A stretch of 64,000 bases of DNA, from IMG/VR virus record IMGVR_UViG_3300032893_002794; one strand, given 5' to 3'. Both the position numbers and the translations under genes were made by a program. Position 1 is the stretch's first letter. Every line of letters begins with the position of its first letter. This DNA comes from an uncultured virus (IMG/VR IMGVR_UViG_3300032893_002794). Taxonomy: Duplodnaviria; Heunggongvirae; Uroviricota; Caudoviricetes. Below the pieces are notes generated by a model. It worked only from the letters and a program-made list of their open reading frames with translations. It did not search any database and was not told the origin of the DNA. Below are positions 1 to 29,544 of this stretch, in pieces.

Positions 1-18
1 GTCGAGATGCGGGAGTTC

Positions 19-1587
19 GTCGCGAGGGCAGCGCAGGGGCCCGAACACTGCGAGGGGATCACGTCACCGGGATAGCTGGTCACAATGTCATTGTCGCGAG
101 GGCGGCGCGGGGGCCCGAACACTGCGAGCATGGGCCCAGACTAGGACAGAGATTTTCGATGCGAGGGTCGCGAGGGCTGCGCAGGGGCCTGAACACTGCG
201 AGGAGAAATGCGCTGGCCAAGTCAGCTGTGGAGCAAACGTTGCGAGGGCGGCGCGGCGGCCCGAACACTGCGAGTGGGTCCGTGTGAGCACACTTCAACG
301 TCCGCTCAGGTCGCGAGGGCTGCGCAGGGGCCTGAACACTGCGAACAAACGACGGTCGAAGGTTGCTTGGTCGCGAGGGCGGCGCGGGGGCCAGAGCACC
401 GCGAGGGGCGATGTCGTCGAGTCGCGAGGACCGGTTGTTGGTTCGAAGGTAACTTTGTTCAATCGTCGCGAGGGCGGCTCGGGGGCCAGAGCACCGCGAG
501 ACACTGAGTAGAGGAGATCAGTTCTTCTCTCAAAGAGTTGAGAGGGCGGCGCGAGGGAGGAACCATGGGAATTGATGTTTCGAGGGCAGCTCAGAGGCCC
601 GAACACTGCGAGTTGTAGTAGAGGATGTTGTTGCGAGGGCGGCGCGGGGGCCAGAACACCGCGAGGAGAAATGCGCTGGGCAAGTCAGCCGTGGAGCAAA
701 CGTCGCGAGGGCGGCGCGGCGGCCCGAACACCGCGAGGTGGCCATGTGTTTCCATTGAGTCTCTATGTGACGGGATTTGTATCAAGGAGTTGCGAGGGCG
801 GCGCGGCGGCCCGAATACCGTGAGGGAGGAACCATGGGAATTGATGTTGCGAGGGCGGCGCAGGAGCCCGAACACTGCGATCATCGAGATGATCAAGTTT
901 TTTTCGTTTTTTTTCGTCGATATCATGTCGCGAGGACAGCGCGGGGGCCCGAATACTGTGAGCTTGGGTCCTGACGAAGTTGCGAGGGCGGCGCGGGGGC
1001 CCGAACACCGTGAGGTACTCGGTTCGCGTCGGAGATTAGAAGTGATCGAGGTTGTGAGTATGGTGCGGGGGCCAGAACACCGTGAGCTGATCTCTTCCTA
1101 TTGATGCGAGGGTGTCGCGGGGGCCCGAACACCGCGAGTTGACCTCTTCCTGTTGATGCGAGGGCGTCGCGGGGGCCCGAACACTGCGAGAGAGCGCAGC
1201 TTCAGTACCTGAGGATATCGTGGACTAGTCGCGAGGGCGGCGCGGGGGCGCGAGATTCCGCACTGTCGCGAGGGCGGCGCAGGGGCCCGAACACTGCGAG
1301 GGCGACCTCGCTAGACACGAACGCGCTGTAAGAGTCGTCGCGAGGGCGGCGCAGGGGCCCGAACACTGCGAGTCTTCGGGAGGAGACGGTGATGTCCATC
1401 CCAGCCTTGTCGCGAGGGCGGCGCAGGGGCCCGAACACTGCGAGGGTCAGAATCCCCTCCCGGAACCCACCCAGTAGGAGCAGGTCGCGAGGGCGGCGCA
1501 GGGGCCCGAACACTGCGAGTACTTCATCGGGTTCTTGTCTGATCTCTCGAAGTAGTGAGGGCGGCGCGGCGGCCCGAATACCGCGAG
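19..1587 (+). CRISPR. CRISPR array 1 (atypical/degenerate; probably continues left of the window), 36-nt repeat GTCGCGAGGGCGGCGCAGGGGCCCGAACACTGCGAG
   Basis: 22 full-length repeat copies (starts 19,93,167,239,310,370,465,577,630,702,789,846,927,979,1051,1103,1155,1265,1337,1409,1484,1552) plus 3 internally deleted copies (421,537,1228); spacers 10-51 nt. Orientation inferred from a 3' stem CGCAG/CTGCG followed by 2 nt, as in Cas12m repeats. Confidence 0.95.
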
Positions 1588-1630
1588 ATCTGGAATCGGT
1601 GCTTGTGAGAGTCAGGTGTTAACTTGATTG

Positions 1631-1680
1631 TTGACATCTAATTCTGCAGGTGGTTAGATACATTTCCTCTGGACTGGAGG
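1631..1680 (+). promoter_or_regulatory. sigma70-like promoter and RBS of cas12m
   Basis: TTGACA at 1631-1636, 17-18 nt gap, TTAGAT/TAGATA at 1654-1660; GGAGG at 1676-1680, 7 nt before ATG 1688. Confidence 0.6.
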
Positions 1681-1687
1681 AAGGCTC

Positions 1688-3748
1688 ATGAAGCGGAAGA
1701 AGTCGAAGCTCCCATCTCGGGTATACAAGTATGCCCTGCGACCCCCGACGCTCAATGCCGAGCTCGTCGACGAGTCGCACTGTGAGTCGAGGCGATATTA
1801 CAACAAGCTCGTCACGATCGAGAATCGCCGGCGACACTTCTACCGTCTCTGCCGAGCCAAGTACTTCCCGGAGTATGCTCGCGCGGAGGAGGACGTCAGC
1901 GCGCTCGAGCTGAGGCTCGAGGAGGAGCGCACTTCCATCTTGAGCAAGAAGTCCGAGGGTAGGACGAGGCAGGTGAGTGACGCTGACCGGGGGAGCGTTG
2001 ATCAGATCCTGGCGGAGCTCAAGCTGGCGCGGAAGCGGGTCGTCGAGCTCGGGCTGCCGATACGGATAGTGGAGCACGAGCTGCGTGTGGTGAAGCTCGA
2101 AACCGAGCGAGCGGAGCTTGCTGGAGCAGGCGACGAGGACGGGGCTCGAGAAGTTGTCGAGAAGCTAGTGAAGCTGGTCAAGAAGCTCGCTAAGTTGCGC
2201 GAGAGGCTCGCGAAGATCTTGAACGAGACCGCGGTTGTCGAGCGGGTGCGCGAGGCTGTCGCGAGGATGCGCGAGGATGTGGAGGTCCACGACGAGGAGG
2301 CGCTCGAGGCCGTCAAGGCGCTGCGGTCTAGTCTCTACTGGGGCACTTACCTGCTTGTCGAGAAGGCGTTCGAGCAGGCCTCCGCGAAGTCGAAGTATGA
2401 CGTTGCGTACGATGATACGCCTTCGCATCTGCTCAAGAGCCGCATCGGTGTTCATTGGGTTGGAGGGACGTCTGTGGAGGAGGTGCTCTCGAACGATACG
2501 CTCATGCAGATAGTAGATCCGCCGGAATTCCGGCAGACGAAGAGTGGGATCTACAGGCCCAGGTACAAGAGGGACGAGCAGGGCAACATCATCTACTGCA
2601 TGCTGAGGTTCCGGGTTGGGTCGGTCGGCAAGAAGAAGGAGCCCCTCTGGGCGGAGCTTCCGCTCGCCTACGATCGGCCGCTGCCGGTTGACGGTCGCAT
2701 CAAGTTTGCCTATGTTACGAGGCGTCCGCTGCGGGAGCGCAATCCATGGCAGTACTACCTGTGCGTGTCGGTTGAGGCGGCGAGCTTCGAGCGCACGCTG
2801 CCCCACGTGACCCAGGAGGGGACGACAACGGTCAATTTTGGTTGGCGGCAGCTCGACAGCGGTAACATCAGGGTCGCGACGGTAAACCGTGACGGAGGGA
2901 AGGTGGAGTATGTCGAGATCCCGAAGTACTTCGTCGACGGCCACGTGAAGTGCAGGAAGCTGCAGGGTCTGCTCGACGAGAAGTTCGAGGCCGTCAAGAA
3001 GGAGATCGCCGGGTGGATCTCGTCGAGGGAGCGGCATTTGCCGGGGATGCTGCCGGAGCTGTTCGTCGAGAGCTTCGAGCACGTCACCATGTGGAAGTCG
3101 CAGCACAAGCTTTGCGAGCTCGTGCGCTACTGGGAGGAGCACAGGGTGGAGGGGGACGACGGCATCTGGTCGGTGGTCGACGAGTGGCGAGGGAGGTACT
3201 TGCACCTCCATGACTGGATGACTAACGCGAGGCGGAGACTGCTCGGCTGGCGCCGCGACTTCTATGCGAGGGTGGCCAAGGATCTGGTGATTACGTCGGC
3301 TCAGGTGGCGATAGATACTTTCAAGATCGCCGACGTGGCAGAGCGACCGGAGGCCGAAGCTGTCGAGGAGGGGGGCGAGAGGGCGAGGTGGAACCGGGTG
3401 GTCGCGGCGCCGAGCGAGCTCCGGAGGGCTATAGAGGTGGCGGCCAAGAAGTACCATTGCCTAGTGCTGGCTGCGCCCACTGTGGACGGCACCAGGAGGT
3501 GCAATGTCTGCGGGGAGATCTACGAGTGGGATCCTGCTCGGGAGTTCGTGCACGCGTGCCCTGGGAAAGATGGTTCTGGGTGCTCGGAGTGGGATCAGGA
3601 CGTCAACAACACCGACAACTTGGTCGATGCCGTTGCGAGCGGCGACGTGGTGCCGTTGGTTCGGCCGGCTGAGCACAGGGATGGCGAGGACTTGATCTCT
3701 AGTGAGCAGTTGCCCTATGGCATCGCTCGCAAGATGCTGGGCAAGTAG
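1688..3748 (+). CDS. cas12m: Type V-M (V-U1) CRISPR effector, Cas12m-like, non-canonical RuvC
   Basis: 686 aa between two arrays. Motifs collinear with Cas12m as I recall it: LYWGTY, LRFRVGS..PLWAELP..RPLP, VNFGWR (RuvC-I, N383), WKSQHKL, RRRLLGWRRDFYARVA, AIDTF (RuvC-II, D543), AAPSELRRAI, TRRCNVC..C..C zinc finger, WDQDVN (RuvC-III, D638). Confidence 0.85.
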   Translation: MKRKKSKLPSRVYKYALRPPTLNAELVDESHCESRRYYNKLVTIENRRRHFYRLCRAKYFPEYARAEEDVSALELRLEEERTSILSKKSEGRTRQVSDADRGSVDQILAELKLARKRVVELGLPIRIVEHELRVVKLETERAELAGAGDEDGAREVVEKLVKLVKKLAKLRERLAKILNETAVVERVREAVARMREDVEVHDEEALEAVKALRSSLYWGTYLLVEKAFEQASAKSKYDVAYDDTPSHLLKSRIGVHWVGGTSVEEVLSNDTLMQIVDPPEFRQTKSGIYRPRYKRDEQGNIIYCMLRFRVGSVGKKKEPLWAELPLAYDRPLPVDGRIKFAYVTRRPLRERNPWQYYLCVSVEAASFERTLPHVTQEGTTTVNFGWRQLDSGNIRVATVNRDGGKVEYVEIPKYFVDGHVKCRKLQGLLDEKFEAVKKEIAGWISSRERHLPGMLPELFVESFEHVTMWKSQHKLCELVRYWEEHRVEGDDGIWSVVDEWRGRYLHLHDWMTNARRRLLGWRRDFYARVAKDLVITSAQVAIDTFKIADVAERPEAEAVEEGGERARWNRVVAAPSELRRAIEVAAKKYHCLVLAAPTVDGTRRCNVCGEIYEWDPAREFVHACPGKDGSGCSEWDQDVNNTDNLVDAVASGDVVPLVRPAEHRDGEDLISSEQLPYGIARKMLGK

Positions 3749-3777
3749 CTGAAAACCTTATAGATTTTCGTGTAGCT

Positions 3778-5859
3778 GTCGCGAGGGCGGCGCAGGGGCC
3801 TGAACACTGCGAGCTCTCTATGGAACTCTCTGCTCTCGAAAGAAACGCCGGTCGCGAGGGCGGCGCAGGGGCCTGAACACTGCGAGGTCTTCTCGGGGCG
3901 GTCGATGATGGCGGCGGGAGTGCCGGTCGCGAGGGCGGCGCAGGGGCCTGAACACTGCGAGGTTCTTGTAGATCGGAATATCAATTTTTCCGAAACCGGT
4001 CGTGAGGGCGGCGCAGGGGCCTGAACACTGCGAGGTTCTTGTAGATCGGAATATCAATTTTTCCGAAACCGGTCGTGAGGGCGGCGCAGGGGCCTGAACA
4101 CTGCGAGGATTTCGCCGATCCGGAGCTCTTCACGAAATTCCTGGTCGTGAGGGCGGCGCAGGGGCCTGAACACTGCGAGCGTCCCCCACCGGCATCGGTT
4201 TCCAGAGACAGTCCACCTCGTCGTGAGGGCGGCGCAGGGGCCTGAACACTGCGAGGGCTAACCAGTCTGTCACCGTATCCGAGTCACGAGCCGGTCGTGA
4301 GGGCGGCGCAGGGGCCTGAACACTGCGAGGACGACCTTGTAGCACTCACGCCGGACGCAGACGGGAAGGTCGTGAGGGCGGCGCAGGGGCCTGAACACTG
4401 CGAGGTCGGGAGAGTGTTCTAGGAGCCTCTGAGCCTCTGACGAAGCACTAGTCGTGAGGGCGGCGCAGGGGCCTGAACACTGCGAGGGATCGTCCTTGGC
4501 GCGACTTGGGGAGAAGGCTCGAGTCGCGAGGGCGGCGCAGGGGCCTGAACACTGCGAGGTCTCACCCGAGGCCCTGAAGCTGGCTCGCAAGAAGGGGTCG
4601 CGAGGGCGGCGCAGGGGCCTGAACACTGCGAGAACGCAAAGGCCCTGCCTCCCGCAAACTCGAAGGAAAGTCGCGAGGGCGGCGCAGGGGCCTGAACACT
4701 GCGAGCCTTTCTCGCGCGTGCGGCCAGGCAGGCGACCAAGGGGTCGCGAGGGCGGCGCAGGGGCCCGAACACTGCGAGCGACTGTCCGACAGCGAAAATG
4801 GCGCTTTTTGTCGCGTCGCGAGGGCGGCGCAGGGGCCCGAACACTGCGAGGGCGACCTCGCTAGACACGAACGCGCTGTAAGAGTCGTCGCGAGGGCGGC
4901 GCAGGGGTCCGAACACTGCGAGTCTTCGGGAGGAGACGGTGATGTCCATCCCAGCCTTGTCGCGAGGGCGGCGCAGGGGCCTGAACACTGCGAGCCCCGC
5001 TTGAATTCCCCGGCCACGACGACCAAGAAGTCGCGAGGGCGGCGCAGGGGCCCGAACACTGCGAGAGAATCGCGCGGCTTGTGCAGGTGTCGATCGACGA
5101 GTCGCTAGGGCGGCGCAGGGGCCTGAACACTGTGAGGACAACGAAAGCTGATATTCGGCAGAGCTAAAGGACGTCGCGAGGGCAGCGCAGAGGCCTGAAT
5201 ACTGTGAGGAAAGGCGAGAAATTGAGCATCAGAGCAGTCGTCAAGTCGCGAGGGCGGCGCAGGGGCCTGAACACTGTGAGGAATGGTTGCCCGGGGTAGG
5301 ACAGCGGATCGGGAGAGTCGCGAGGGCGGCGCAGGGGCCCGAACACTGCGAGCGCATAGGGGCCGTGCAGAGGAGGCGGCCAAGATTTCGGTCGCGAGGG
5401 CGGCGCAGGGGCCCGAACACTGTGAGAGCAGAGTGCGAGAGAGGGCGACTAGGTCAAGCCAGGTCGCGAGGGCGGCGCAGGGGCCCGAACACTGCGAGTC
5501 GCGTGGCCCCTTCGAGCGCGGAGGAAGTATCACGTCGTGAGGGCGGTGCAGGGGCCCGAACACTGCGAGTTGATGCCCACCGTCTGTGGGTTGCTGACCT
5601 GGTCAGGTTGTGAGGGCGGCGCAGGGGCCCGAACACTGCGAGGAGACGCCAAGAAGAGGTTCGCGTACAGTACAGACCGTCGCGAGGGCGGCGCAGGGGC
5701 CCGAACACTGCGAGCACGGAAGTAGCCTTGCAACATCTGAAAATCATTGTGTGTCGCGAGGGCAGCGCAGGGGCCTGAACACTGCGAGCAGGCAACCAAT
5801 CGAGGACACAATGGCAGCAACACGTCGCGAGGGCGGCGCAGGGGCCCGAACACTGCGAG
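3778..5859 (+). CRISPR. CRISPR array 2 (canonical): 29 repeats, 28 spacers of 35-46 nt
   Basis: Same 36-nt repeat, first copy 29 nt after the cas12m stop; repeat starts run from 3778 to 5824; followed by a 15-nt spacer and a collapsed repeat GTCGTGAG (5875-5882). Confidence 0.98.
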
Positions 5860-6096
5860 GAGCGATGTCGTCGAGTCGTGAGGGAATTATCGATGCACGT
5901 CTGGGCATTGAATCATTCGGACGATCTCGTCTGCGTCTTCATAGTCGTAGTTTGGCGACAGTGAGATCACGAGGCGCAAGAACACCCACACCCAGGCTTC
6001 ACCGTTGAGTACGGCTGGGGCCAGTCGACCGCGGAATTGGGCTATGTTGTTTTTGTGCTTCACAGTTTCACAGTAAATTGACTGCGCAAGCGGGCA

Positions 6097-7107
6097 TTAT
6101 GGCTTCTTGGCCTTGTTTCTCATTGCCTTCCGGAGCCAGGATTTGTCAGCGTCTTCCCGGGCTATCACTTCCTTGAGGGCGCGCGAGTCGATCACCTCCT
6201 CGAAGGCCTCGCGTATCAGGCGACTCAAGACGTTGGGCGGCAGGGCGTCCACCTCCCACGAGGACTCGCCGTGCTTCCTCACGTAGTCGGATGCTCGGGG
6301 GTCGGTCATCTTGGCAGGGTTCGGTGGTGGGTCGTACTCCTCGACCTGCTCTGTGGTGAGAGCGATCTTCGAGACCTCGAGGTCGATGCTGTGGCGGCTG
6401 AACTCGAGGATCCGATCTCGGATGTCTCTGACCATGTCCTCTCCGGACGGGTCATGGTCCCCTAGGTAGAAGATGATCGCGGGCTTGGTCGTTGACCTGA
6501 AGTCTCTTATCTTAGACTCCAAGTACTGGTCTACTTGGTTGTCGGACCACTCGTGGGTGTCCATCTGTCTCTTTGTCTCGCGGACGATGGCAAAGTAGTC
6601 CTGGATGCTCCACCCGACGGCTGTCTGGATGCGCTCGGCGGACTCTCGCATGGCGCTCGCTGACGAGTAGCCCTTGTTCACCATGAGCGTCACGTGGAAC
6701 TCTCGAGCGAGCGGGGCTAGGACGCCAGCGAGGGCCTGCTTCTCAACCCACAGCTCGACGTACTTGGGCTGGTTGCTCCACCGCGGGAGCCGGTAGGCCC
6801 TGAGTGCCGACTCGACCAAGGAGGAGATGGAGGTCCACTCAGAGGGACGTTCAGGCACGCGGCCTCGGTCTTCGATCGCGTCCCAGTCGACGAGGCCGGC
6901 GTACCGCGCGTCGGTGAGGAGGGCGGTGAGCTGCTTGTACGCGGCCGGAGTGTTCGCGATGAGATCTCGAGCCACGAACTGGTAGTAGAGCTGGCGGGCC
7001 GTCAGTCGCAGTCCTTGGGACTGGTACTCCTCGACGATCTCCACTATCTTCGTGATCTTCGCCATTGATTCTGGTCGGAATTTGGTGCTTCGAATTTTAT
7101 CTATCAT
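6097..7107 (-). CDS. Topoisomerase VI-A/Spo11-like (JetD/Mini-A type) winged-helix + TOPRIM protein
   Basis: LTARQLYYQ (catalytic Tyr region), VELWVEKQAL (TOPRIM Glu), GYSS, FYLGDHDPSG (DxD), WEVDAL; AAAGGAGG RBS before ATG at 7107. Confidence 0.75.
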   Translation of the reverse strand: MIDKIRSTKFRPESMAKITKIVEIVEEYQSQGLRLTARQLYYQFVARDLIANTPAAYKQLTALLTDARYAGLVDWDAIEDRGRVPERPSEWTSISSLVESALRAYRLPRWSNQPKYVELWVEKQALAGVLAPLAREFHVTLMVNKGYSSASAMRESAERIQTAVGWSIQDYFAIVRETKRQMDTHEWSDNQVDQYLESKIRDFRSTTKPAIIFYLGDHDPSGEDMVRDIRDRILEFSRHSIDLEVSKIALTTEQVEEYDPPPNPAKMTDPRASDYVRKHGESSWEVDALPPNVLSRLIREAFEEVIDSRALKEVIAREDADKSWLRKAMRNKAKKP

Positions 7108-7170
7108 GACCTTGAAGCCTCCTTTAGTTATCATCTTATCACGATACAAGGACAGGTGATTAGTTTTTTA

Positions 7171-7201
7171 TTTTGACACTTGCTTCTTTATCGGCTATCT
7201 T
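7171..7201 (+). promoter_or_regulatory. sigma70-like promoter
   Basis: TTGACA(7173)-17 nt-TATCTT; 19 bp identical to 8091-8109. Confidence 0.65.
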
Positions 7202-8048: not shown

Positions 8049-8090
8049 AGTCGCGAGATTTCTTAGATTTTTTCTCCAGCTACATTTTCT

Positions 8091-8121
8091 TTTTGACACT
8101 TGCTTCTTTCTGGTGGATAAT
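8091..8121 (+). promoter_or_regulatory. sigma70-like promoter
   Basis: TTGACA(8093)-17 nt-GATAAT. Confidence 0.65.
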
Positions 8122-8742: not shown

Positions 8743-9762
8743 CTACTCGAGGTTTCCGATCCACACCACCTTCGGGGTCTCGCTCCGCATGGTCTCGTCT
8801 CTCAGCACCTCGGCGAAGCTCTGGTGCATGGGGTGGTCTCTGAGGTGTACGGCTCGAGCTCGGTACGAGGCGTCGTCGAACGTCCCCCAGTTGAGGAACT
8901 TCTGGAAGTGGATCTCGTCGGCGTGGAGGTCGGCGGCGAGCCTCACGAACGCCGGCATCTCGGCATAGTTGGCCGCCTGGACCACGAAGTTGAGCACCAC
9001 CCTGTCGACGAGCTCCTGCTCGCGCAGCGACTTGATGAAGTATAAGTTCGACCACGGCATCGCCAGGGGGCGGCTGCTCCCGTCCCGGCGGAGCTGGGCG
9101 TAGGTGGCGTCCGTGGCGGCGTCTAGCGACACCTGCAGCTCCCTGACGGTGGTCTGCCCGTCGGTCCAGCGGTTGGGTCCTACTAGGCGTTCCCACCTCT
9201 CCGGGTCGAGGAGGCGACCGTTCGTGCAGATCGCCAGTCTCAGGTTGGGGCACCTCGAGCGGTCGATGCTGTCCACGAGCGCCTGGTAGTGGCGGGAGGC
9301 CAGGGGCTCGCCGCCGCCGGCGAGGTACATGACGTCGACCAGCTCGAGCAGGGGCGACCTGGCCAGTCGAGCCGTGATCTCGGACATGGTGTAGGTCTCA
9401 TCTGGCGAGGGAGCGAACAGCTGTTGCCGGCAGGTGGGGCACGCCAGGTTGCAGGTGTGGTCGTAGGCGACGGCCAGCGCGTGGACGCGGAGATCTCGGG
9501 AGGGTGCGTACTCGCCTTGCACCTCGGTGATTGGTCCGGAGGGCGCCGGCAGGTAGGGGCACTGCCGGCAGCTCGAGAACGTCTTGTCGGCGACGTGGCG
9601 CCTCATCTCTGCTACCTTGTCGCCGCGCCACAGCTCCGAGGGGTCGGTGGTCAAGATGCTGCCCACGGGTCCGCAGGTCCACAGGGGGCAGCAGACGTAG
9701 ACGTCTCCACCTCGGTAGATCCCGAGGGTGTGGTCGGCCTGGGTGCAGTTGTAGTGGGTCAT
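8743..9762 (-). CDS. radical SAM protein with N-terminal SPASM/twitch-like Cys domain
   Basis: GDVYVCC..CRQCP then YDHTCNLACPTC, GGGEP, TNG, VSLDAA; ATGA overlap start at 9762. Confidence 0.85.
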   Translation of the reverse strand: MTHYNCTQADHTLGIYRGGDVYVCCPLWTCGPVGSILTTDPSELWRGDKVAEMRRHVADKTFSSCRQCPYLPAPSGPITEVQGEYAPSRDLRVHALAVAYDHTCNLACPTCRQQLFAPSPDETYTMSEITARLARSPLLELVDVMYLAGGGEPLASRHYQALVDSIDRSRCPNLRLAICTNGRLLDPERWERLVGPNRWTDGQTTVRELQVSLDAATDATYAQLRRDGSSRPLAMPWSNLYFIKSLREQELVDRVVLNFVVQAANYAEMPAFVRLAADLHADEIHFQKFLNWGTFDDASYRARAVHLRDHPMHQSFAEVLRDETMRSETPKVVWIGNLE

Positions 9763-10400
9763 CTCTTGTTCCACAGGCATGTGTACTTGCGCACCTCGTA
9801 CGATCCCGGCTCTAGGAGCTCGGCGATGGCCTGATCTTCTCCGGAGAATCCGATCTCGAAGTCGTGGATGCCGAGATGGCCTCCTACTTTTACTTTTGGC
9901 ATGTAGGCGAGGAGCTGTTCCCGAGTGTCTTCGTACGTGTGGATCGTGTCGATGAAGACGAAGTCGAGGCTCTCGTCCGCGTAGCACGAGGCCTGATCTT
10001 GGCCACGTCTGACTATCAGGTTGATGTAGTCAGAGAGCCCCGAGCGAGCAATGAAGCTCTCGGTGACGTTTCGCTGTCCTATCGGGGAGCTCAGTCGCAT
10101 CACCTCCTCGCGGGCGGCCTCCTCAGCTATTGGAGGGCACCACGAGCTCGGGGAGTGCACTGACGGAGAGTAGAACTCGACGATCTTGTGGTGGGGGATG
10201 AAGAGCGGGTCGACGGCGTCGAAGTATATGTGTTTTTTTGATCGGTGGATCTCCGAGGCCATGTAGACGGCTGACCTGCCGAACATGACCCCCACCTCGA
10301 CGAACCTTGCTCCACTAGCGGGAGCTCTCTCGACTGCCTCAGTGTAGACGTCCTCGAAGTCGAACCAGCCCGGGATGTCTCTCCACGTGATCTTGTCCAT
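9759..10400 (-). CDS. class I SAM-dependent methyltransferase (Methyltransf_24-like)
   Basis: FVEVGVMFGRS, FDAVD, LDFVFIDTIHTYE, GGHLGIHD. Confidence 0.85.
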   Translation of the reverse strand: MDKITWRDIPGWFDFEDVYTEAVERAPASGARFVEVGVMFGRSAVYMASEIHRSKKHIYFDAVDPLFIPHHKIVEFYSPSVHSPSSWCPPIAEEAAREEVMRLSSPIGQRNVTESFIARSGLSDYINLIVRRGQDQASCYADESLDFVFIDTIHTYEDTREQLLAYMPKVKVGGHLGIHDFEIGFSGEDQAIAELLEPGSYEVRKYTCLWNKR

Positions 10401-10409
10401 CTGACTCTC

Positions 10410-11441
10410 CTATGATATTTCTTTGAGTGTGGCGCTCTCGCGTCGGACGCTGTGGCTTATACCGCAGAGGGCGTAGCACTTGTTCATCTCTCTCCTCACG
10501 TCGTCAGCTCCCAGCCAGAATGACCTGAGGTCGCCTCTCCGCTCGAGCTTCTCGCCGCGGAAGCGGTCTGAGAAGCACAGTCGGGCGGTGCCGCGGAGGT
10601 CCACCATGACGTTGCGCTCGCCGCTGTTGCAGACGTGCTCACTCGTGGCGATCTTGTAGTACCAGTCCACGGCGTTCTCGAAGCTGCCCCTCATGAGCGA
10701 GTCGCAGTAGCTCTCCACCTGCTCTATCCAGACCGGGGAGAGGCGGAGGGAGTACTTCTGGTCGCACTCCCTGAGCTGCCTAGCGAGGTCTGCGCCGTCG
10801 ACGGAGTGGTGCTTGACGAAGAAGTGGTCGAACGTGCCCAGGCCGAAAGACGGCTGGAGCATGTTGATCTTGAGCTTGTCGGCGCCTACGTCTCGCAGCA
10901 CCAGGTGGTAGAGGGAGTCTAGATCTCGGCTGCTGTCGTCGTAGATGAGGGCCATGGCGAAGATGCGCCGGAAGGCGAGGGACCGGTCGCTCGACCTGGC
11001 AGACACCAGCAGCCGGAGGGCTCGCACGGCGGCCTGGAAGGCGCCCCTCGTCCCGCGGGAGGAGTCGTGCACGCTCTCGAGGTGGCTGTCGAGGGAGACA
11101 GTGATCTCGTCCGGGCCCTCGGACAGCACGTGGCGAGCCTCATCCATATTGTTGATGGTCGTGCCGTTGGTAACGGACAGAGAGCGAAGTCCGAGGGCTC
11201 GGCAGGCGGCGCACGCGCGGAAGTACGAGTCTCTCGCGAGCATGGGCTCACCGCCGCAGATGACGACCGACCCTCTCGGGGATAGATCGGCGAACTCGTC
11301 GATCACGTCGCACACGCGGTCGATCGACATTTTGGACTCTGGCGGCGGCTCTTTGGTCGTCCAGTAGTAGCAGTGCTGGCACCTGAGGTTGCACTCCGTG
11401 TTGATCGTGGTGAACAAGAATTTCGGCGGCGGCCTCGTCAT
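10410..11441 (-). CDS. radical SAM protein (C-terminal Cys cluster)
   Basis: CNLRCQHC, GGEP, TNG, VSLDS, HDSSRG; ATGA overlap start at 11441. Confidence 0.85.
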   Translation of the reverse strand: MTRPPPKFLFTTINTECNLRCQHCYYWTTKEPPPESKMSIDRVCDVIDEFADLSPRGSVVICGGEPMLARDSYFRACAACRALGLRSLSVTNGTTINNMDEARHVLSEGPDEITVSLDSHLESVHDSSRGTRGAFQAAVRALRLLVSARSSDRSLAFRRIFAMALIYDDSSRDLDSLYHLVLRDVGADKLKINMLQPSFGLGTFDHFFVKHHSVDGADLARQLRECDQKYSLRLSPVWIEQVESYCDSLMRGSFENAVDWYYKIATSEHVCNSGERNVMVDLRGTARLCFSDRFRGEKLERRGDLRSFWLGADDVRREMNKCYALCGISHSVRRESATLKEIS

Positions 11442-13174
11442 GGGAGCGGCTTCCGGTAGACGAACGAGCTCCACGGGGGCGGCACCTCGAAGGAGTCGCC
11501 CAGCACATCGCGCACGGCCAGCATGTGGCCCTCGTAGGGGGGGTAGAAGTCGTGCCCGGCTATCACACCGCCGGGTCGTAGCTTCGGGAGGTAGAGTCGC
11601 AGTATGGAGGCGGTGTCCTCGTAGGTGTGCGCGGTGTCGAAGAACACGAAGTCGAGGCTGCCGTCCTCGTAGTGCGAGGCCCGCTCCTGGCCGATCGACT
11701 TGACGAGGTTGACGTGAGATGTGAGCTCGGCCAGCTCCAAGAAGCGCTTCACGATCTGTTCGTGATCTTTGAGCTCTCGCACGGCTCGCCTCATGGCGAG
11801 CACGCCTGGCTTGGGAGCGGACCAGAGCCTCGTCGATGGCTCGAGCAGCTCGTACTGGTACTCGAGGTCGGAGGGATATGACAGGGCGAACTTGTCGACG
11901 GCGTCGAAGGCGATCTTCTTGCCGCTCTTGGCGATGGCTCTGGCCATGTAGGCCGTCGACCTGCCGTAGAGCACTCCTATCTCGACGAATCGGGCACCGT
12001 CGCTTGCCATATTGACGGCGTCGTCGTAGATCTGCTCGAAGTCGAAGTAGCCGGGCAGGTCCTGCCACGTGACGAGCGGGCGCTCTGTCTCGACGAGCTC
12101 GACTCTGGGAGTAGGTTCAGCGTCGAGGGGAGGTGTCACAGCGTCGGTCGGCTGGAAGCCAACCCAGAGGACGCGGTCCGGGTGCTCGGACTCGACCTGC
12201 GCCATGTTCTTCGCGAGCACGTCGCGCAGAGGGTGGGAGGGCAGGTGGACGGCCCGCTCGGCGTACTTGGTCCCGAGCCTCCAGGTTCCGTCTATGAGGC
12301 TACCGGTGTCCTCGTAGGTGCCTAGGTTGGCGAGCTCCACGAACTTGACGAGGTCAGCTTCGTAGTGTTGCGCGAGATCCATGAAGGCTGGTATCTCGCG
12401 CACGTTGTTGGCCTGCACGACGAAGCTGAGTCGCAGGGAATCGAGTCGGCCTCTCGTCCTCAGTCCCCGCAGGAAGCGCAGGTTCTCGCAGAGCATGTCC
12501 CAGTTGCCCCGGCGGTTCTCGCGGTACGTCTCGGGACAGGAGGCGTCGATGGACACCTCCACGGAGTCCACGTGGCGTGCGCCGTTGCCGATCTTGGTCC
12601 AGTTGTCGGGGGTGGCGAGGAGCCCGTTCGTGTAGAGGGATATCCGCAGTCCAGGGTAGCTCGAGGGAGTCAGGCCCCTGAGGAAGTCGAAGTATACGTC
12701 GGACGCGAATGGGTCGCCGCTGCCGGTGATGTGGAGGCGCCTCGTCGTCTCCAGCACCCTGCTCGACAGGACGCGCGAGTGTATGAGGTCTAGCCGCCTC
12801 TTGGTGAGGCCGCCGACACCGAAGTGGAATCTCTCCTTCCTGCAGGAGGGGCAGGCTAGGTTGCACCTCCGGTCGTACGACCAGTGGAGGTCAGTGACCG
12901 TGGTCGACGCGGGTGTCTCGCGTGGGTCGAGTGGTGGTTGAGGCACGACGATGCCGCCGTGCTTCGGCAGGAATGGGCACCTCCTGCAGTGGCGGTAGCT
13001 GCCGTCTCTGGCGCTCTCCCGCACGGACTCGGCCGCCTCGCTGTGGAGCACGGTGGGCAGGTCGTCGTCGATGAGGTTGCCGATCGGCACCGGCAGCCAG
13101 GTGGGGCAGCACAGCCACACGTCGCCGTTGAAGTCCACCTCGAGTCGCGAGAATGGTATCGTGCAGGCTCCCAT
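11438..13174 (-). CDS. SPASM-like + radical SAM + C-terminal methyltransferase fusion
   Basis: GDVWLCC, CNLACPSC, GSGDP; C-terminal FVEIGVLYGRS..DTAHTYE..GHDF paralogous to 9759-10400. Confidence 0.85.
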   Translation of the reverse strand: MGACTIPFSRLEVDFNGDVWLCCPTWLPVPIGNLIDDDLPTVLHSEAAESVRESARDGSYRHCRRCPFLPKHGGIVVPQPPLDPRETPASTTVTDLHWSYDRRCNLACPSCRKERFHFGVGGLTKRRLDLIHSRVLSSRVLETTRRLHITGSGDPFASDVYFDFLRGLTPSSYPGLRISLYTNGLLATPDNWTKIGNGARHVDSVEVSIDASCPETYRENRRGNWDMLCENLRFLRGLRTRGRLDSLRLSFVVQANNVREIPAFMDLAQHYEADLVKFVELANLGTYEDTGSLIDGTWRLGTKYAERAVHLPSHPLRDVLAKNMAQVESEHPDRVLWVGFQPTDAVTPPLDAEPTPRVELVETERPLVTWQDLPGYFDFEQIYDDAVNMASDGARFVEIGVLYGRSTAYMARAIAKSGKKIAFDAVDKFALSYPSDLEYQYELLEPSTRLWSAPKPGVLAMRRAVRELKDHEQIVKRFLELAELTSHVNLVKSIGQERASHYEDGSLDFVFFDTAHTYEDTASILRLYLPKLRPGGVIAGHDFYPPYEGHMLAVRDVLGDSFEVPPPWSSFVYRKPLP

Positions 13175-13182
13175 CTTTCCTC

Positions 13183-14202
13183 CTACGGTCGGTTGAAGCC
13201 CATCCAGTAGATCTTGACCTTCTCGTGGGGTTCGCGCTGTCTTATCTCCTCGAGCACAGACAGGAGCTCGGGGTGGCGCGGGTGCGACGCGAGCTGGACG
13301 GCCTTGCTGGAGTAGTCGGCCTCGTATTCTTGGTTCTTGAGATAGTTAAACCAGTCGCGTATCTCCATGAACGCCACGCAGTCGACGCCGTGGCTGGTCA
13401 TGAGGTCGAGAAACGCCGGCATCTCGTGGAAGTTGTTCTCCTGCACGACGAACATGGCGTGGAGCTCGAAGGGTCGCTGGCGGGATCGCTTCTCGCTGTT
13501 GATGAAGTCTAAGTTCGCGAGCAGGCGATTCCAGTCGCCTCCTCGGTTCTTCGCGTAGGTCTCCGCGCAGGCGGCGTCCACGGAGATCTGGATCTCGTGC
13601 AGGTTGAGGTGGTCGAGCGACAGGGAGCCCCACAGCTCGGGAGTGCAGAGCAGCCCGTTCGTGCAGAGTCCGACCCTGAGTCCGGAAAATCGCTCTGCTG
13701 ACAGTTGTCGCAGCAGCTCTCGCCCGTAGTGCGAGGCCAGGGGGTCGCCGCTGCCTGACAGGTGGAGTATGTTCACGCGCTCGAGCACGCCGCTCGCCAG
13801 CAGTTTCGACTGTATCGCGGCGACGGACCGGTGGTCGGCTTCTGAGAGTGAGAGGTGGCCCTTCCGGCAGGACGGGCACGCTAGGTTGCACGTCTTGTCG
13901 TAGGAGAGGTACAGGTGGTCGATCACGTCGGTGTCGGGCGCCGGCCCCCAGGGAACGACCGTCCCCTGCGGTCCGGGCAGGAAGGGGCAGCTCGTGCAGT
14001 GCCGGTAGCTGCCGTCCCTGACGCTCATCCTGATCTCCTGGGCTATCTTGCCGTGCCACAGGTCGAGCAGGTCATTGTCCATTATGTTTCCGATTTCGAG
14101 CGGCAGCCATGCCGGGCAGCACAGCCATACGGCTCCCTGGTAGCCGACCTCGAGTCGTATGAACGGGTTCCTGCAGTAGGTGTCTGGGTGGTTAAAATTC
14201 AT
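13183..14202 (-). CDS. radical SAM protein with N-terminal SPASM/twitch-like domain
   Basis: GAVWLCC, YDKTCNLACPSC, GSGDP, ISVDAA. Confidence 0.85.
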   Translation of the reverse strand: MNFNHPDTYCRNPFIRLEVGYQGAVWLCCPAWLPLEIGNIMDNDLLDLWHGKIAQEIRMSVRDGSYRHCTSCPFLPGPQGTVVPWGPAPDTDVIDHLYLSYDKTCNLACPSCRKGHLSLSEADHRSVAAIQSKLLASGVLERVNILHLSGSGDPLASHYGRELLRQLSAERFSGLRVGLCTNGLLCTPELWGSLSLDHLNLHEIQISVDAACAETYAKNRGGDWNRLLANLDFINSEKRSRQRPFELHAMFVVQENNFHEMPAFLDLMTSHGVDCVAFMEIRDWFNYLKNQEYEADYSSKAVQLASHPRHPELLSVLEEIRQREPHEKVKIYWMGFNRP

Positions 14203-14779
14203 AGTGGAATGTCTCCGCGTCTTTACTGAAGTGGTTCAAGAAGAGTCTCATAGTCTCGGCGTCGTAGTACGCGTGGTAGTCCGGTCTCTCCACCCTGCGG
14301 GCGTTGCACTTGGCCAGTGTGGAGCGCGGCTTCTTGATGAGGTCGCATACGCGGTCCCAGTCCTCCTGGATGCGCTCGAACTGCATGAGGAAGTCCACGG
14401 CCGGGGGGGAGTCGGGGCCCTCGCACAGTGTGTCTCGCTGGAGCCTCGTGAGGTGGGAGTAGGCGTGCTGCTCTCCCTCGGGGCGGGATCTGTCGAATTG
14501 AGGCAGATTGCGCAGCAGATCTCTGAAGGTCATGTCCTTGTCGATCCAGCCCATGTACTGGCAGTGGTGCCAGGCGGACACGAGTCGGTCCCACGGGTTC
14601 CTAACTATCGAGAAGCGGAAGTAGTCCCTGTAGCTGGTGAGGTACTCTGGGGTCTGGGTGCCGGAGCACATGTGGAGGGCGTCTCTGTCCAGCCATTCTA
14701 GTCCGAAGGCGCTCAAGATCGACGTGCTCGCCACCTTCAGCTGCTGGACGAAGATGCACTTGTGCTCGTGGGATATCAT
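14192..14779 (-). CDS. sulfotransferase family 2 protein
   Basis: MISHEHKCIFV..KVASTSI (5'-PSB-like), FSIVRNPWDRLVSAW (3'-PB), FERIQEDW, Y..YYD. Confidence 0.85.
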   Translation of the reverse strand: MISHEHKCIFVQQLKVASTSILSAFGLEWLDRDALHMCSGTQTPEYLTSYRDYFRFSIVRNPWDRLVSAWHHCQYMGWIDKDMTFRDLLRNLPQFDRSRPEGEQHAYSHLTRLQRDTLCEGPDSPPAVDFLMQFERIQEDWDRVCDLIKKPRSTLAKCNARRVERPDYHAYYDAETMRLFLNHFSKDAETFHYEF

Positions 14780-15552
14780 GTTATCTCATTGCACTTCCAG
14801 TAGCGCTCTGCTACTTCTCTGCATGACCACTCGGTCATGCGGTCGTCCATCGTCCACGGTCGCTCGACGATGATCTTCTTGCTCATGTCGATGAGGTCCG
14901 CTCTCGGATCTCGGCGGCTCGTCATGGCATCCCCTATCGACAGGTTCTCGTAGCGCTTCTTGTCCGAGTGTGAGATGTGCTCCAGGGCGACGACGTCGAC
15001 CTCTCTCCACACGAGCCCGTTGACCGACATGCGGAAGTAGAGATCGTCGTCCTCTCGGCCGTAGTGGACAAGTCTCTCGTTGTAGCCGTTGATCGCTAGT
15101 ACGTCTTTAGGGTCTACGAGCAGCGTGCCGCTCAGGTTGCGCTTGTCGCTGACGAGGGGAGGTACCGTGCGCCAGTTGCCGGCGTAGAAGTCGTCTCCCC
15201 GCAGGGGGTGTAGCCTCAGGAAGTCGGGCCGCACGAGCACGTCGTTGTCGAGGCGGAGCAGTATGACGTCATTGCATTGGAGTCCGAGAAGTCCACCTCC
15301 TGAGGCTATGCGCACCTCCAGGTTGTGGCACTTGGAGTTCTGCCAGTGCGACTGTCCCTCCGCGCGGTAGATGCGCACGCGAGGGTCGTCCAAGAAGTCC
15401 ACGGCATCTCGGATGGGGATCTTTGAGCCCCAGTCGACTATGATGACCATGTCTACTTCCTTGAGAGCCAGCCAGGTGGACAAGGCTCGGCACAGGGGCC
15501 ATAGCCGGTCGCGCGATCCTGTTGTAACGATGACTCTGCGGTCTCCTGTCAA
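14776..15552 (-). CDS. glycosyltransferase (GT2/GT7 galactosyltransferase-like)
   Basis: IIVDWGS, LRLDNDV, INGYNERLVHYGREDDDLYFR; TTGA overlap start with GAGGAG RBS. Confidence 0.8.
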   Translation of the reverse strand: MTGDRRVIVTTGSRDRLWPLCRALSTWLALKEVDMVIIVDWGSKIPIRDAVDFLDDPRVRIYRAEGQSHWQNSKCHNLEVRIASGGGLLGLQCNDVILLRLDNDVLVRPDFLRLHPLRGDDFYAGNWRTVPPLVSDKRNLSGTLLVDPKDVLAINGYNERLVHYGREDDDLYFRMSVNGLVWREVDVVALEHISHSDKKRYENLSIGDAMTSRRDPRADLIDMSKKIIVERPWTMDDRMTEWSCREVAERYWKCNEIT

Positions 15553-16556
15553 GGTATCTCCTCTCGTGCCAGAGCCAAGATCGTCGTGTGGGGGCGACAG
15601 TCGTGGGCGAAGAAACTGTCTGAGAGTTGGGCCGTGCGCACTCTCTCGTCGCGTAGAGATGGATCTCTCAATACCCGCACGAGCTCTGTGTGCAGTGGGT
15701 GGGAGGGGAACTGCACGGCCCGCTGCCTGTACTCGGCGTCGCTCCACGCTCCCCACTGGTTGACGGCGTCGAATCGCACGCAGCTCGCCTTCCACGACAG
15801 GGCGAGCTCGACGAACGCCGGCATCTCGCGGAAGTTGTTGGCCTGGACGACGAAGTTGACCCTCAGCGGGACGCCGCAGTCGACTATCCTCGACAGGTTG
15901 GCGCAGAGGCGCTCGAAGTCTCCACCCCTCCGGTTCTTGGCGTAGGTCTCGGCGGTGGCGGCGTCCACTGAGATCTCAGCTCCGTATATCGGCTTGCCGT
16001 ATCCGCGTATCTTGTCGACGACCTGGGGACTGAGCCAGAGGCCGTTCGAGCACAGTATGATGCCGAGCTGCGGGTGGCAGTCTATGTCTTTCCACCTCCT
16101 CATGAGGTCCCAGAACAGCTTCGAGGCCAGCGGCTCGCCGCTGCCGGATATTGACACTGATCTCGCGATCTTGTAGATGCCGGACTTGATGGTGGCCTCG
16201 TGCACTTCTCGCGACCTGGGGCTGTGCTTGACCAGATCTCTGCGACAGCTGGGGCAGGAGATGTTGCAGGTGTAGTCGTAGGCTAAGGCTAGGCAGTCTA
16301 TGGTCGAGAGGTCGATGCTCGCGGGTGGCGGCCGTCTCTCGATGAGCTCTGGGCACCTGCAGTCTGCGCAGTAGCGGAAGCTCTGGTCTAGGATGGACTG
16401 CCTCTTCTCAGCCGCGAGGGGTCCGGTCCATATCGCGGAGACGTCGTCGGTCAGTATGTTGCCCACGGGCAGGGTGTTCCAGGTGAACCCGTAGCACAGG
16501 CTCGCCTCACCGTTGGTGTAGATGTGCAGTCTCGAAAAGGGCGTGGGGCAGAACAT
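15549..16556 (-). CDS. radical SAM protein with N-terminal SPASM/twitch-like domain
   Basis: CPTPF..NGEASLC, YDYTCNISCPSC, GSGEP, ISVDAA. Confidence 0.85.
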   Translation of the reverse strand: MFCPTPFSRLHIYTNGEASLCYGFTWNTLPVGNILTDDVSAIWTGPLAAEKRQSILDQSFRYCADCRCPELIERRPPPASIDLSTIDCLALAYDYTCNISCPSCRRDLVKHSPRSREVHEATIKSGIYKIARSVSISGSGEPLASKLFWDLMRRWKDIDCHPQLGIILCSNGLWLSPQVVDKIRGYGKPIYGAEISVDAATAETYAKNRRGGDFERLCANLSRIVDCGVPLRVNFVVQANNFREMPAFVELALSWKASCVRFDAVNQWGAWSDAEYRQRAVQFPSHPLHTELVRVLRDPSLRDERVRTAQLSDSFFAHDCRPHTTILALAREEIP

Positions 16557-16563
16557 CTCTAGC

Positions 16564-20098: not shown

Positions 20099-20455
20099 TC
20101 ATCCTCGGAAGGGTCTGGAGTACGCCCTCACTCCGGCAGCCCTGAGCATCTTGACCATCTTCTCTCTCATGGAGGTGTTGTGGGAGTGCACGTAGACCTT
20201 GAGGGGCCTGCGCCGCTCGGACATGTCGCGCGCGATGTGAACGGCCACGTCCATGCCGGTGCCTGACGTAGGACCTGAATGATTCAGGTCGTGGTCTAAG
20301 TAGGCCACGTCGTAGCGGGGGTTGTGCTCGAGGGATGCTATGGCGCCGCGGGCTGTCATGGCGAGGGTCAGTGAGTGGTCGTCGAGCATGGCCATGAATT
20401 TTTTCAGCCTGTCTTCGTCGTCGTCGAGCACCAGCGCGGTTGGAGTTTTGCTCAT
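20099..20455 (-). CDS. stand-alone receiver-like protein (cyclic-phosphate-processing receiver family)
   Basis: LVLDDD..R, YLDHDL, TGMDVA, VHSHN; ATGA overlap start. Confidence 0.7.
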   Translation of the reverse strand: MSKTPTALVLDDDEDRLKKFMAMLDDHSLTLAMTARGAIASLEHNPRYDVAYLDHDLNHSGPTSGTGMDVAVHIARDMSERRRPLKVYVHSHNTSMREKMVKMLRAAGVRAYSRPFRG

Positions 20456-29528: not shown

Positions 29529-29544
29529 GGTGTACCTCTCTTCG

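Follow-up and report, generated by a model that had tools for sequence, protein, structure and literature searches.

The window analysed here, a stretch of 64 kb, makes up approximately 42% of a contig of ~151 kb; the element is at least 151 kb long. The cas12m locus lies at one end. As described in the initial annotation, it consists of one effector gene with an array on either side, both arrays sharing a 36-nt repeat, and all features of the locus are on the plus strand.

The cas12m gene (1688-3748) encodes an effector of 686 aa that belongs to Cas12m (type V-M, previously V-U1). The PADLOC profile Cas12u1 aligns with residues 11-649 (E 2e-72), and comparison with PDB sequences yields the Cas12m entries 23vw (4.6e-45), 23vu (3.9e-12), 8hio/8hhl (1.8e-11) and 8pm4 (1.2e-5). 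The AlphaFold model (pLDDT 90.9, pTM 0.84) has the bilobed Cas12m fold with coiled-coil insertions in the REC lobe, a RuvC domain and a zinc-finger TNB. In Foldseek all first four ranks are occupied by Cas12m (E 2.5e-25 to 2.9e-20, TM 0.52-0.73), whereas the best Cas12f and TnpB structures have E 7e-10 and 1e-8, respectively. The Cas12m/V-U1 profile and the solved Cas12m sequences outscore other Cas12 proteins and TnpB. The assignment as Cas12m-like in the initial annotation is thus upheld by both profile search and structure prediction, which place the effector with Cas12m and not with TnpB. Matches to NCBIfam TnpB (0.35) and Pfam TNB (0.074) are both below the cut-off. An IS200/IS605 TnpB was considered separately and rejected: the score with NCBIfam guided_TnpB is 10.1 bits, below the required 100, and transposase families are absent among the neighbouring genes (Pfam).

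The RuvC triad had been read as N383/D543/D638 instead of D/E/D, and the same positions are obtained in the alignment to the solved Cas12m sequences and in the alignment to 31 homologues (codons 2834-2836, 3314-3316 and 3599-3601). Asparagine at RuvC-I occurs in 28 of the 32 family rows, and in a quick tree of the 32 rows a branch with SH-aLRT 95 separates these from the others. Nearly all members of this N-D-D clade are metagenomic. The locus also shows that a whole metagenomic clade with asparagine at RuvC-I is found largely on viral contigs. Three triad forms of Cas12m, D-E-D, H-D-D and N-D-D, are described in (PMC11013384), and according to the same source the proteins of these forms that were tested bound DNA without cutting it. 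PmCas12m, with the triad N372/D494/D581, was also tested and showed DNA binding without cleavage. Asparagine at RuvC-I is therefore already in print and not new to this protein, since N-D-D variants were tested in (PMC11013384) and PmCas12m has the same residues. By analogy with these relatives, which are at most 30% identical to it, the effector would bind DNA without cleavage.

A promoter-like pair of hexamers, TTGACA (1631-1636) and TAGATA (1655-1660), separated by 18 nt, can be read directly ahead of cas12m. It is below the stricter rule of the promoter scan, and thus this candidate is rather weak. It is followed by a Shine-Dalgarno box GGAGG (1676-1680), also read directly. The stop codon is separated from the first repeat of array 2 by 29 nt (3749-3777). 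In the relatives L022, L023 and L041 a repeat is situated no more than ~30-40 nt past the cas12m stop codon, and in 12 related loci an array begins soon downstream of the gene. The gene and array 2 are probably co-transcribed.

Array 2 (3778-5859) contains 29 repeats and 28 spacers, 27 of them distinct. The spacers are 35-40 nt long, with one of 46 nt, and one spacer is present twice (3962-3998 and 4035-4071). The array terminus (5860-5884) is formed by a 15-nt pseudo-spacer and a 10-nt truncated repeat (5875-5884, 7.6 bits). The first units of array 2 are polymorphic among three otherwise identical wetland assemblies, in which the spacers read S1-S2-S3-S3, S2-S3 and S2-S1-S2. These differences provide a concrete test site for renewal in trans of phage arrays that lack adaptation genes.

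Array 1 (1-1587) is of a different kind. Of its repeats, 22 are full-length and deviate from the consensus at 0-10 positions, two are truncated (537-555 and 1228-1254), and the intervals vary from 16 to 88 nt. The window starts within this array: contigs from two public runs add at least one repeat-spacer unit leftward, and a contig of 173 nt consists of a repeat end, 16 letters and positions 1-127 of the window. The distal part (1-1260) has 17 full-length variant repeats (1-10 mismatches), both truncated repeats, the full range of intervals and internal duplications with 90-94% identity. It also contains a copy of the array 2 terminus (408-430), that is, the 15-nt pseudo-spacer and the start of a truncated repeat; positions 408-429 and 5862-5883 (22 nt) differ by one mismatch. 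A terminator-like short hairpin followed by two T-runs (879-915) is a weak candidate: it is the only hairpin kept in the centroid fold, and it was not called by the consensus scan.

The proximal block (1265-1587) consists of four perfect repeats and a degenerate terminal repeat (1552-1587, six mismatches) with four spacers. Two of the four are identical to spacers of array 2 (1301-1336 to 4851-4886, and 1373-1408 to 4923-4958), and the 180-nt block 1265-1444 has 99% identity to positions 4815-4994. The truncated repeats, the embedded array terminus and the duplicated units point to rearrangement debris. Array 1 appears to be mostly that, with an older distal patchwork and a recently copied four-repeat block, although some of its units may still give usable guides. 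Two contig joints, 1264 to 5824 and 129 to 4892, run through identical repeats and could be artefacts of the graph; for this reason they were left out of the evidence. Separately, the depth in X1 was 126.6 for the piece with cas12m and 209.2 for the flank.

The repeat can be folded into a pseudoknot with two stems, resembling that of PmCas12m. Counted across 29 distinct variants of the repeat, the share of paired cells is 96.6%, and none of 500 shuffles reached this level. The pair 17:31 is intact throughout, with A-U in 16 variants, G-C in nine and G-U in four. Despite their wear, the repeats of array 1 retain the crRNA fold, and one of the pairs is compensatory. The minimum free energy of a single repeat is no more stable than that of shuffled sequences (z -0.52). 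In line with the tracrRNA-independent type proposed initially, no anti-repeat or tracrRNA signal was found: there is no reverse complement of the repeat at up to eight mismatches, and the minus strand has no match to the repeat model above 11.5 bits. The Rfam scan yielded no families and ARAGORN no tRNAs.

In the initial annotation one non-cutting effector was given two jobs, the exclusion of competitors with full-length guides from array 2 and regulation with short guides from array 1. Indeed, six intervals of array 1 are short (16, 16, 16, 17, 21 and 24 nt), the minimum being 16 nt. Kept pairing in the variant repeats, including the compensatory pair, together with this lower limit is a better match to retained function than to pure decay. 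Moreover, in the relative L023 (52% identical) one solitary repeat-like element lies 48 nt ahead of the cas12m start codon, with 0.02 expected in shuffles. However, in ten other related loci the regions of up to 1.5 kb upstream contain no such element in nine cases and a weak one in the tenth. The mature crRNA of PmCas12m is described as a ~33-nt handle with a ~17-nt guide, forming a 17-bp heteroduplex, and the guide is ~17 nt whatever the spacer length (bioRxiv 10.64898/2026.03.26.714355). If this holds for N-D-D proteins such as the one considered here, spacers of 16-17 nt and of 36 nt would produce approximately equal guides, and spacer length cannot separate the two modes; nor would a binding-only effector have a cut-versus-bind switch. 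Within the 64 kb, the short spacers have no further seed match of at least 12 nt (there is a single 11-mer match), and no match of 9 nt exists for the pseudo-guides behind the two terminal repeats. Given also the two truncated repeats, the embedded terminus and the duplicated units, the division of jobs between the arrays is unlikely and the claim is not sustained.

It is equally doubtful that array 1 holds selected, hard-wired minimal guides, with 16-17-nt spacers and fold-preserving repeat changes, which would form a natural phage CRISPRi programme on fixed host or rival targets, array 2 being renewed gene-proximally by adaptation machinery acting in trans. The 16-17-nt intervals are a natural test of minimal guide length.

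The retained fold is also what one would expect if array 1 were a sponge or a feedback element, that is, if its repeat-like RNAs bound the phage's own Cas12m or that of a rival phage and thus titrated or autoregulated the effector. We presume that such an arrangement would resemble autorepression by CreR or crRNA-like RNAs, or the phage RNA anti-CRISPRs (Racr). The position of array 1 directly upstream of the cas12m promoter region is consistent with this possibility, as is the G-C form of pair 17:31, which is common to the repeat of the co-occurring relative L023. On the other hand, no partial complementarity of guides to the cas promoter or to another site of the own genome was found in the window. 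Neither are there convincing solitary repeats elsewhere in it; the best match outside the arrays has 13.7 bits (E 0.02). This makes regulation of that kind quite improbable, and we prefer to consider array 1 as rearrangement debris.

No Cas1, Cas2 or Cas4 genes were found in the window among the ORFs as called rather than in a full six-frame translation (73 ORFs in the Pfam search, 74 in PADLOC; 64 kb of the ~151-kb contig), as had been noted initially. The same is true for 137 ORFs flanking 11 related loci, and Cas1 is absent from genome G001 (88% completeness). According to (PMC11013384), V-U1 to V-U5 loci typically lack acquisition genes. Their absence here is an already described trait of V-U1.

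Spacer targets were sought at several levels. None of the 49 intervals has a match of 18 nt or longer in the window outside the arrays, and none has a protospacer in 27 related loci. The spacers of array 2 have no protospacers in 36 genomes of the order Conexivisphaerales, 50,697 phage records and 72,556 plasmids, and the first 20 nt of three spacers have none in IMG/VR. In the opposite direction, the genomes of the order were searched in three ways for spacers against the element, with weak non-array matches only. One candidate host spacer, a 34-nt match in contig C81 of G001, was rejected, as it lies outside any array. A host array with a similar repeat, suggested in the initial annotation, did not materialize: the 25-nt repeat core with four degenerate positions retrieved a single near-identical contig from 185,579 species genomes and nothing from IMG/VR.

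The element is most likely a large tailed phage of a bacterium. The ORF next to the locus (6097-7149) belongs to phrog_6247 (1.3e-91); its homologues come from 78 phage records, where the listed organisms and hosts are all bacterial. Two paralogous proteins rich in G, T, V and A (54574-59568 and 59301-62681) have a common N-terminal domain. Homologues of this fibre domain carry Pectate_lyase_3, BNR, YadA-head or Peptidase_S74, and such swapping of receptor-binding-type domains supports the fibre proposed earlier. The effector has relatives encoded on 15 IMG/VR viral contigs of 5-194 kb, and in one of them, L011, cas12m directly follows the terminase and portal genes. Together with phrog_6247 and the fibre family, this bears out the virus-like neighbourhood. 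The M15 peptidase proposed for ORF 28974-29633 was not recovered: the product is endolysin-like and matches two PHROG endolysin families only (5.2e-7 and 9e-4), with no match in Pfam or PDB.

On the other hand, no terminase, portal or major capsid genes were found in the 64 kb with PHROG and Pfam. At E 1e-5 no PHROG family was assigned to 64 of the 73 ORFs, and a rescan of 54 at E 0.01 produced nothing structural. No Pfam family was assigned to any of the three largest proteins (E 1), two of these, of 1617 and 1126 aa, have no tblastn match in the 50,697 phage records, and comparison of a 377-aa ORF with the ESM Atlas gave nothing usable (model pLDDT 0.46).

The near-identical contig (L012/L013) is filed in a public archaeal MAG of Conexivisphaerales, which might suggest a chromosomal or plasmid CRISPR locus of such an archaeon, that is, an archaeal type V-M system. 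The G+C content is similar, 0.64 in the window and 0.58-0.62 in the other contigs of the MAG. However, cas12m is present in one of the 36 genomes of the order, and the array 2 spacers match none of them. Shine-Dalgarno motifs precede 28 of 55 genes in the window (51%), as compared to 24 of 95 (25%) on six further contigs from this MAG; the background is 19%. There are five sigma-70-like sites against 0.9 expected, one of them matching at 11 of 12 positions. Of this element, the MAG contains just the 27-kb contig together with two 1-2-kb fragments, and none is joined to other DNA. Taking into account the bacterial hosts of the phages carrying the adjacent gene family and the effector relatives on viral contigs, we consider an archaeal locus very unlikely. 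The near-identical contig is probably a mis-binned bacterial phage, and a claim of archaeal Cas12m should not rest on this MAG.

Overall, we are fairly confident that this is a genuine N-D-D type V-M locus at the end of a ~151-kb contig of a large tailed bacterial phage, with array 1 being mostly debris. In this scheme cas12m would be expressed with a promoter and a Shine-Dalgarno box of its own, and array 2, starting 29 nt past the stop codon, would be transcribed together with it. By analogy with characterized relatives, Cas12m may itself trim the transcript to a pseudoknotted repeat-derived handle and a ~17-nt guide, with no need for tracrRNA. The resulting complex would bind PAM-flanked double-stranded DNA and block transcription or replication without cutting; its most likely targets would be rival phages or other mobile elements of the same host. 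Array 1 would have arisen by recent copying of the four-repeat block beside the gene, and further out by older duplications, deletions and exchange of repeat variants. The known mechanism of Cas12m is left unchanged by this locus, which is a real but fairly ordinary example.

The closest known systems are PmCas12m and the two N-D-D variants of Bigelyte et al. 2024, which belong to the same family by profile, sequence and fold. In these, as here, N-D-D replaces D-E-D, the 36-nt repeat has a pseudoknot-type handle, and there are no tracrRNA signals and no adaptation genes nearby. However, the present effector is longer (686 aa as compared to ~600) and at most 30% identical to the solved members. 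In contrast to them, its gene is flanked by an array on either side, and the protein belongs to a nearly all-metagenomic clade and is known from sequence. The best structural matches, MmCas12m2 and GoCas12m (8hhl and 8pm4, TM 0.64-0.73), are H-D-D proteins; the aspartates of RuvC-II and RuvC-III align, whereas RuvC-I has histidine instead of asparagine, and these proteins are bacterial (Mycolicibacterium, Gordonia) and not phage-borne. IS200/IS605 TnpB has the RuvC/TNB core in common with the effector, but here CRISPR arrays replace the omega-RNA and IS ends, and the protein has REC insertions.

The N-D-D triad, the missing adaptation genes and virus-borne Cas12m-like effectors are all already in print. 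The latter were reported in 2025 and 2026 (PMC12607003; bioRxiv 10.64898/2026.09.14.751636), and 24 landfill viral nucleases are described as grouping with Cas12m (PMC12607003). The landfill nucleases and MvCas12m of myxophage MV-1 are, as described in these reports, similar to the present case in that a phage-borne effector and array occur without cas1, cas2 and cas4, and the spacers have no identifiable target. MvCas12m is described as a D-E-D protein with one array of eight spacers (bioRxiv 10.64898/2026.09.14.751636). Compared with that description, the present locus has an N-D-D effector, two arrays with 28 and at least 21 intervals, and a much larger element. It is a well-anchored addition to the growing set of phage-encoded Cas12m, in which an effector with the N-D-D triad is found on a large element together with an array of unusual length.

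One large ORF (1688-3748, + strand, 686 aa), the only one within the window's initial 5.9 kb, encodes a Cas12m effector, as the initial annotation had proposed. The PADLOC Cas12u1 model matches residues 11-649 (2e-72), and a phmmer search against PDB sequences retrieves the Cas12m entries 23vw (4.6e-45), 23vu (3.9e-12), 8hio/8hhl (Cas12m2, 1.8e-11) and 8pm4 (1.2e-5), the last titled Cas12m-crRNA-DNA complex in the fold library. The Pfam Cas12f1-like TNB domain scores below threshold (0.074), and the NCBIfam guided TnpB model yields 10.1 bits at a cut-off of 100. For an AlphaFold model computed with 32 input sequences (pLDDT 90.9, pTM 0.84), Foldseek puts Cas12m structures in all of the first four places (E 2.5e-25 to 2.9e-20, TM 0.52-0.73), followed by Cas12f (7e-10) and TnpB (1e-8). 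In the phmmer alignments N383 is aligned with Asp in 23vw and His in Cas12m2, D543 with Glu in 23vw and Asp in Cas12m2, and D638 lies opposite the last Asp of WDQD; therefore, the RuvC triad N383/D543/D638 had been assigned correctly. Copies of a single 36-nt repeat flank the gene on both sides and on the same strand. The locus is a real type V-M system (formerly V-U1) and adds a member to a kind already described.

A homologue search in 5.8 billion proteins returned 32 sequences, one of them the window's own product with a start three residues later. The remaining 31, one from NCBI and none bearing any name beyond "hypothetical protein", are 27-59% identical to the effector. RuvC-I has Asn in 28 of the 32 aligned rows, the window included, and Asp in the four most distant ones. 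RuvC-II in the Asn rows is Asp (24), Glu (3) or missing (1), and in a quick maximum-likelihood tree a branch with SH-aLRT 95 separates these rows from the others.

Twenty-seven cas12m loci were considered besides the window, 26 from metagenomes plus L011. Arrays were detected in 12, always 3' of the gene and on the same strand, with 36-nt repeats in most; three further related contigs stop just past a first repeat. Of all loci examined, the window alone carries an array immediately 5' of cas12m. Short intervals of 20-24 nt occur occasionally in L024, L025 and L046; further downstream in L025 there is another array, more degenerate than the first. No Cas1, Cas2 or Cas4 was found among 137 ORFs flanking 11 related loci; these ORFs include a CasE-like gene at L039. 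Against 50,697 reference phage records the window Cas12m has a single match, in KX853510.1 (H16, 112477-113733), the record of a virus of 197 kb obtained from an enrichment culture; the match is annotated as transposase-like and has 28.7% identity over 64% of the query.

Downstream of the gene, array 2 (3778-5859, + strand) is regular, with 29 repeats carrying 0-5 mismatches to the consensus and 28 spacers; spacer length is 35-40 nt, apart from one spacer of 46 nt. One spacer is doubled in tandem (3962-3998 equals 4035-4071), and mean spacer G+C is 0.58 versus 0.64 for the window. Array 1 (1-1587, + strand) is irregular: it contains 22 repeats of full length, which carry 0-10 mismatches, as well as two truncated ones, at 537-555 and at 1228-1254 (+ strand), inside long "intervals". 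The successive intervals are 38, 38, 36, 35, 24, 59, 76, 17, 36, 51, 21, 45, 16, 36, 16, 16, 74, 36, 36, 39 and 32 nt. The left end of the window falls within this array. A 173-nt contig of the wetland run X1 consists of a repeat end, 16 letters and window positions 1-127, and the same joint is present in a 572-nt contig of the wetland run X2, so array 1 extends at least one unit leftward.

The repeat can fold into two crossing stems, formed by columns 8-11 with 21-24 and 14-18 with 30-34. Stem II is in the register described for PmCas12m, whereas stem I is shifted by one or two positions. Pairing is kept in 96.6% of cells over the 29 distinct variants among 51 repeats; none of 500 shuffles attains this level, and slid controls give 15-53%. 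All 29 variants keep pair 17:31 intact, 16 of them as A-U, nine as G-C and four as G-U. All nine G-C variants are in array 1, and the first repeat of L023, the locus of a 52%-identical relative, likewise has G-C. Because just one pair covaries, and among related copies, this is suggestive and falls short of proof. The window contains no reverse-strand copy of the repeat, which argues against a tracrRNA anti-repeat.

It had been proposed that one non-cutting effector does two jobs, with full-length spacers in array 2 and short regulatory guides in array 1. This mechanism found no support: for none of the six short array-1 spacers does a 12-nt seed occur elsewhere in the window on either strand, nor is there a 9-nt match to the sequence 3' of either terminal repeat. 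An 11-mer match of one short spacer in the window is at chance level. No spacer matches of at least 18 nt were observed in the window outside the arrays, where a covariance model of the repeat also produced nothing convincing (best 13.7 bits, E 0.02). A repeat-like element upstream of cas12m is clear in L023 only and weak in one of ten other related loci. In L023 (1117-1139) this single element is situated 48 nt before the cas12m ATG, with 3 edits in 22 (0.02 expected), and the ribosome-binding site occupies the guide position behind it. The element could serve as a feedback device, one not seen in this form in the window.

Array 1 shows several signs of rearrangement. Three repeats and two spacers at 1265-1444 recur in array 2 at 4815-4994 with 99% identity. 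Duplicates within array 1 are 167-274 and 630-737 (92%) and 550-611 and 819-880 (90%), and there is a 52-nt tandem at 1065-1190. Array 2 terminates in a 15-nt pseudo-spacer and a truncated repeat start (5860-5884, + strand), and a copy of this terminus is embedded in array 1 at 406-430. Together with the truncated repeats, these features mark array 1 as a product of rearrangement. In the pair 167-274/630-737 the leading repeats differ at 6/36 positions, the trailing repeats at 2/36 and the spacer at 2/36; the repeats diverge more than the spacer, pointing to exchange of repeat variants over simple point decay. On the other hand, the shortest interval is 16 nt, about the length of a mature guide, and the kept fold, together with intervals never below 16 nt, points away from rearrangement debris. 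For the distal part of array 1 we somewhat favour the view that most of it is debris, although some function may persist.

Over array 1 and cas12m, the window has the same letters throughout as contig C78 of the public archaeal MAG G001 and as L021, a metagenome locus (0 differences, with 3,719 and 3,666 positions compared), and downstream C78 and the window are 99.9% identical over 23 kb. The differences are concentrated at the gene-proximal end of array 2, where the first units, named by the first spacers S1-S4, read S1-S2-S3-S3-S4 in the window, S2-S3-S4 in C78 and S2-S1-S2 in L021. This fits polarised turnover, and equally repeat-mediated duplication and deletion or assembly error; the three assemblies may have reads in common. 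Mean depth in X1 is 126.6 for the cas12m contig (window 1490-3807) versus 209.2 for the 50.9-kb flanking contig (5831 onward), by crude contig depths, and the gap is absent in the other two runs; one possible cause is a co-occurring strain whose CRISPR cassette differs.

The near-identical 27-kb contig C78 is filed in a MAG labelled Conexivisphaerales archaeon. The gene occurs in only one of 36 genomes of that order and no junction of the contig to other DNA is present in the MAG. The window contains five sigma-70-like promoters versus 0.9 expected, one being TTGACA-17-GATAAT, and 28 of its 55 genes have an upstream Shine-Dalgarno motif, compared with 24 of the 95 from six further contigs of the MAG (background 19%). 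All this argues against an archaeal host, and a bacterial host with a binning error is much the likelier explanation; the translation signals are unlike those of the rest of the MAG, and the phage-like contig was probably mis-binned. The MAG also holds two small divergent fragments, C32 and C51, with 84% and 95-98% identity, and the element seems to be represented by several coexisting strains.

The product of 6097-7149 matches PHROG 6247 "DNA topoisomerase" (1.3e-91); homologues occur in 78 phage records, whose listed organisms and hosts are all bacterial. An ORF at 28974-29633 is weakly similar to endolysin PHROGs. The region 54574-62681 (- strand) encodes two tandem fibre-like paralogues, one of 1126 aa and the other of about 1560 aa, that are rich in G/T/V/A and contain repeats of ~110 aa, several in the longer one, whose listed start is about 105 codons too early. 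They have in common an N-terminal domain of about 330 aa, homologues of which bear Pectate_lyase_3, BNR, YadA-head or Peptidase_S74 domains; such swapping behind a common N-terminus is the modular pattern of tail fibres. Judging by composition alone, a 1617-aa Ala/Lys/Arg-rich protein may be the tape measure. No terminase, portal or capsid genes were found in the 64-kb window. The longest contig in the cluster records of its proteins has 150,998 nt, so the window is less than half of the element. Homologues of cas12m are encoded on 15 IMG/VR contigs of 5-194 kb, and in L011 the gene directly follows terminase and portal genes. No protospacers were found in the window, related loci, genomes of the order, reference phages, plasmids or IMG/VR (three spacers, exact 20-mers).

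Six contexts that cannot otherwise be aligned have an invariant 27-nt box in common: window 26421-26445 (- strand), L026:889-925, G001:C81:3274-3307 (L050), L058, L059 and L060. The box occurs once in the window versus 0 expected by chance, each time lies ~10-25 nt 5' of a Shine-Dalgarno box and ATG, and in L058 and L059 is downstream of a TTGACA/TATACC pair. Rfam has no entry at this box, which may be conserved in this phage group as an operator or a 5'-leader. Two 25-nt elements containing TTGACA (7165-7189 and 8085-8109, + strand, 92% identity) are followed 17 nt further on by TATCTT or GATAAT and precede a group of small + strand genes, cas12m being the only other gene on that strand. The region 8743-18095 (- strand) is a modification cluster, unusual for a phage, with six radical-SAM/SPASM proteins, a sulfotransferase and a glycosyltransferase-like ORF; in two of the six, Methyltransf_24 domains are fused to the protein or lie next to it. 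Among the small ORFs, the one at 20099-20623 encodes a protein with a cREC_REC domain (cyclic-phosphate processing receiver) and the one at 31595-32158 a nucleotidyltransferase resembling AbiEii (both - strand).

Cas12m proteins with D-E-D, H-D-D and N-D-D triads were all reported to be PAM-dependent dsDNA binders, none of which cut (Bigelyte et al. 2024, PMC11013384), and the loss of cleavage in an H-D-D enzyme was attributed to an absent second magnesium ion (Omura et al. 2023, PMC10442227). A cryo-EM structure describes PmCas12m with the triad N372/D494/D581, a mature crRNA of a ~33-nt handle and a ~17-nt guide, and a heteroduplex optimum of 17 bp (2026 preprint 10.64898/2026.03.26.714355). 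Spacer-acquisition genes are described as missing from typical V-U1 to V-U5 systems (PMC11013384). In a landfill virome study 24 virally encoded nucleases group with Cas12m on the tree (PMC12607003), and a myxophage Cas12m is reported with an 8-spacer array and without cas1/2/4 (2026 preprint 10.64898/2026.09.14.751636). Thus Asn at RuvC-I, the lack of adaptation genes and viral carriage, which the initial annotation had offered as novel, are each already in print. What interest remains attaches to the variant repeats that keep the fold, to the intervals of 16-17 nt and to the array polymorphism close to the gene.
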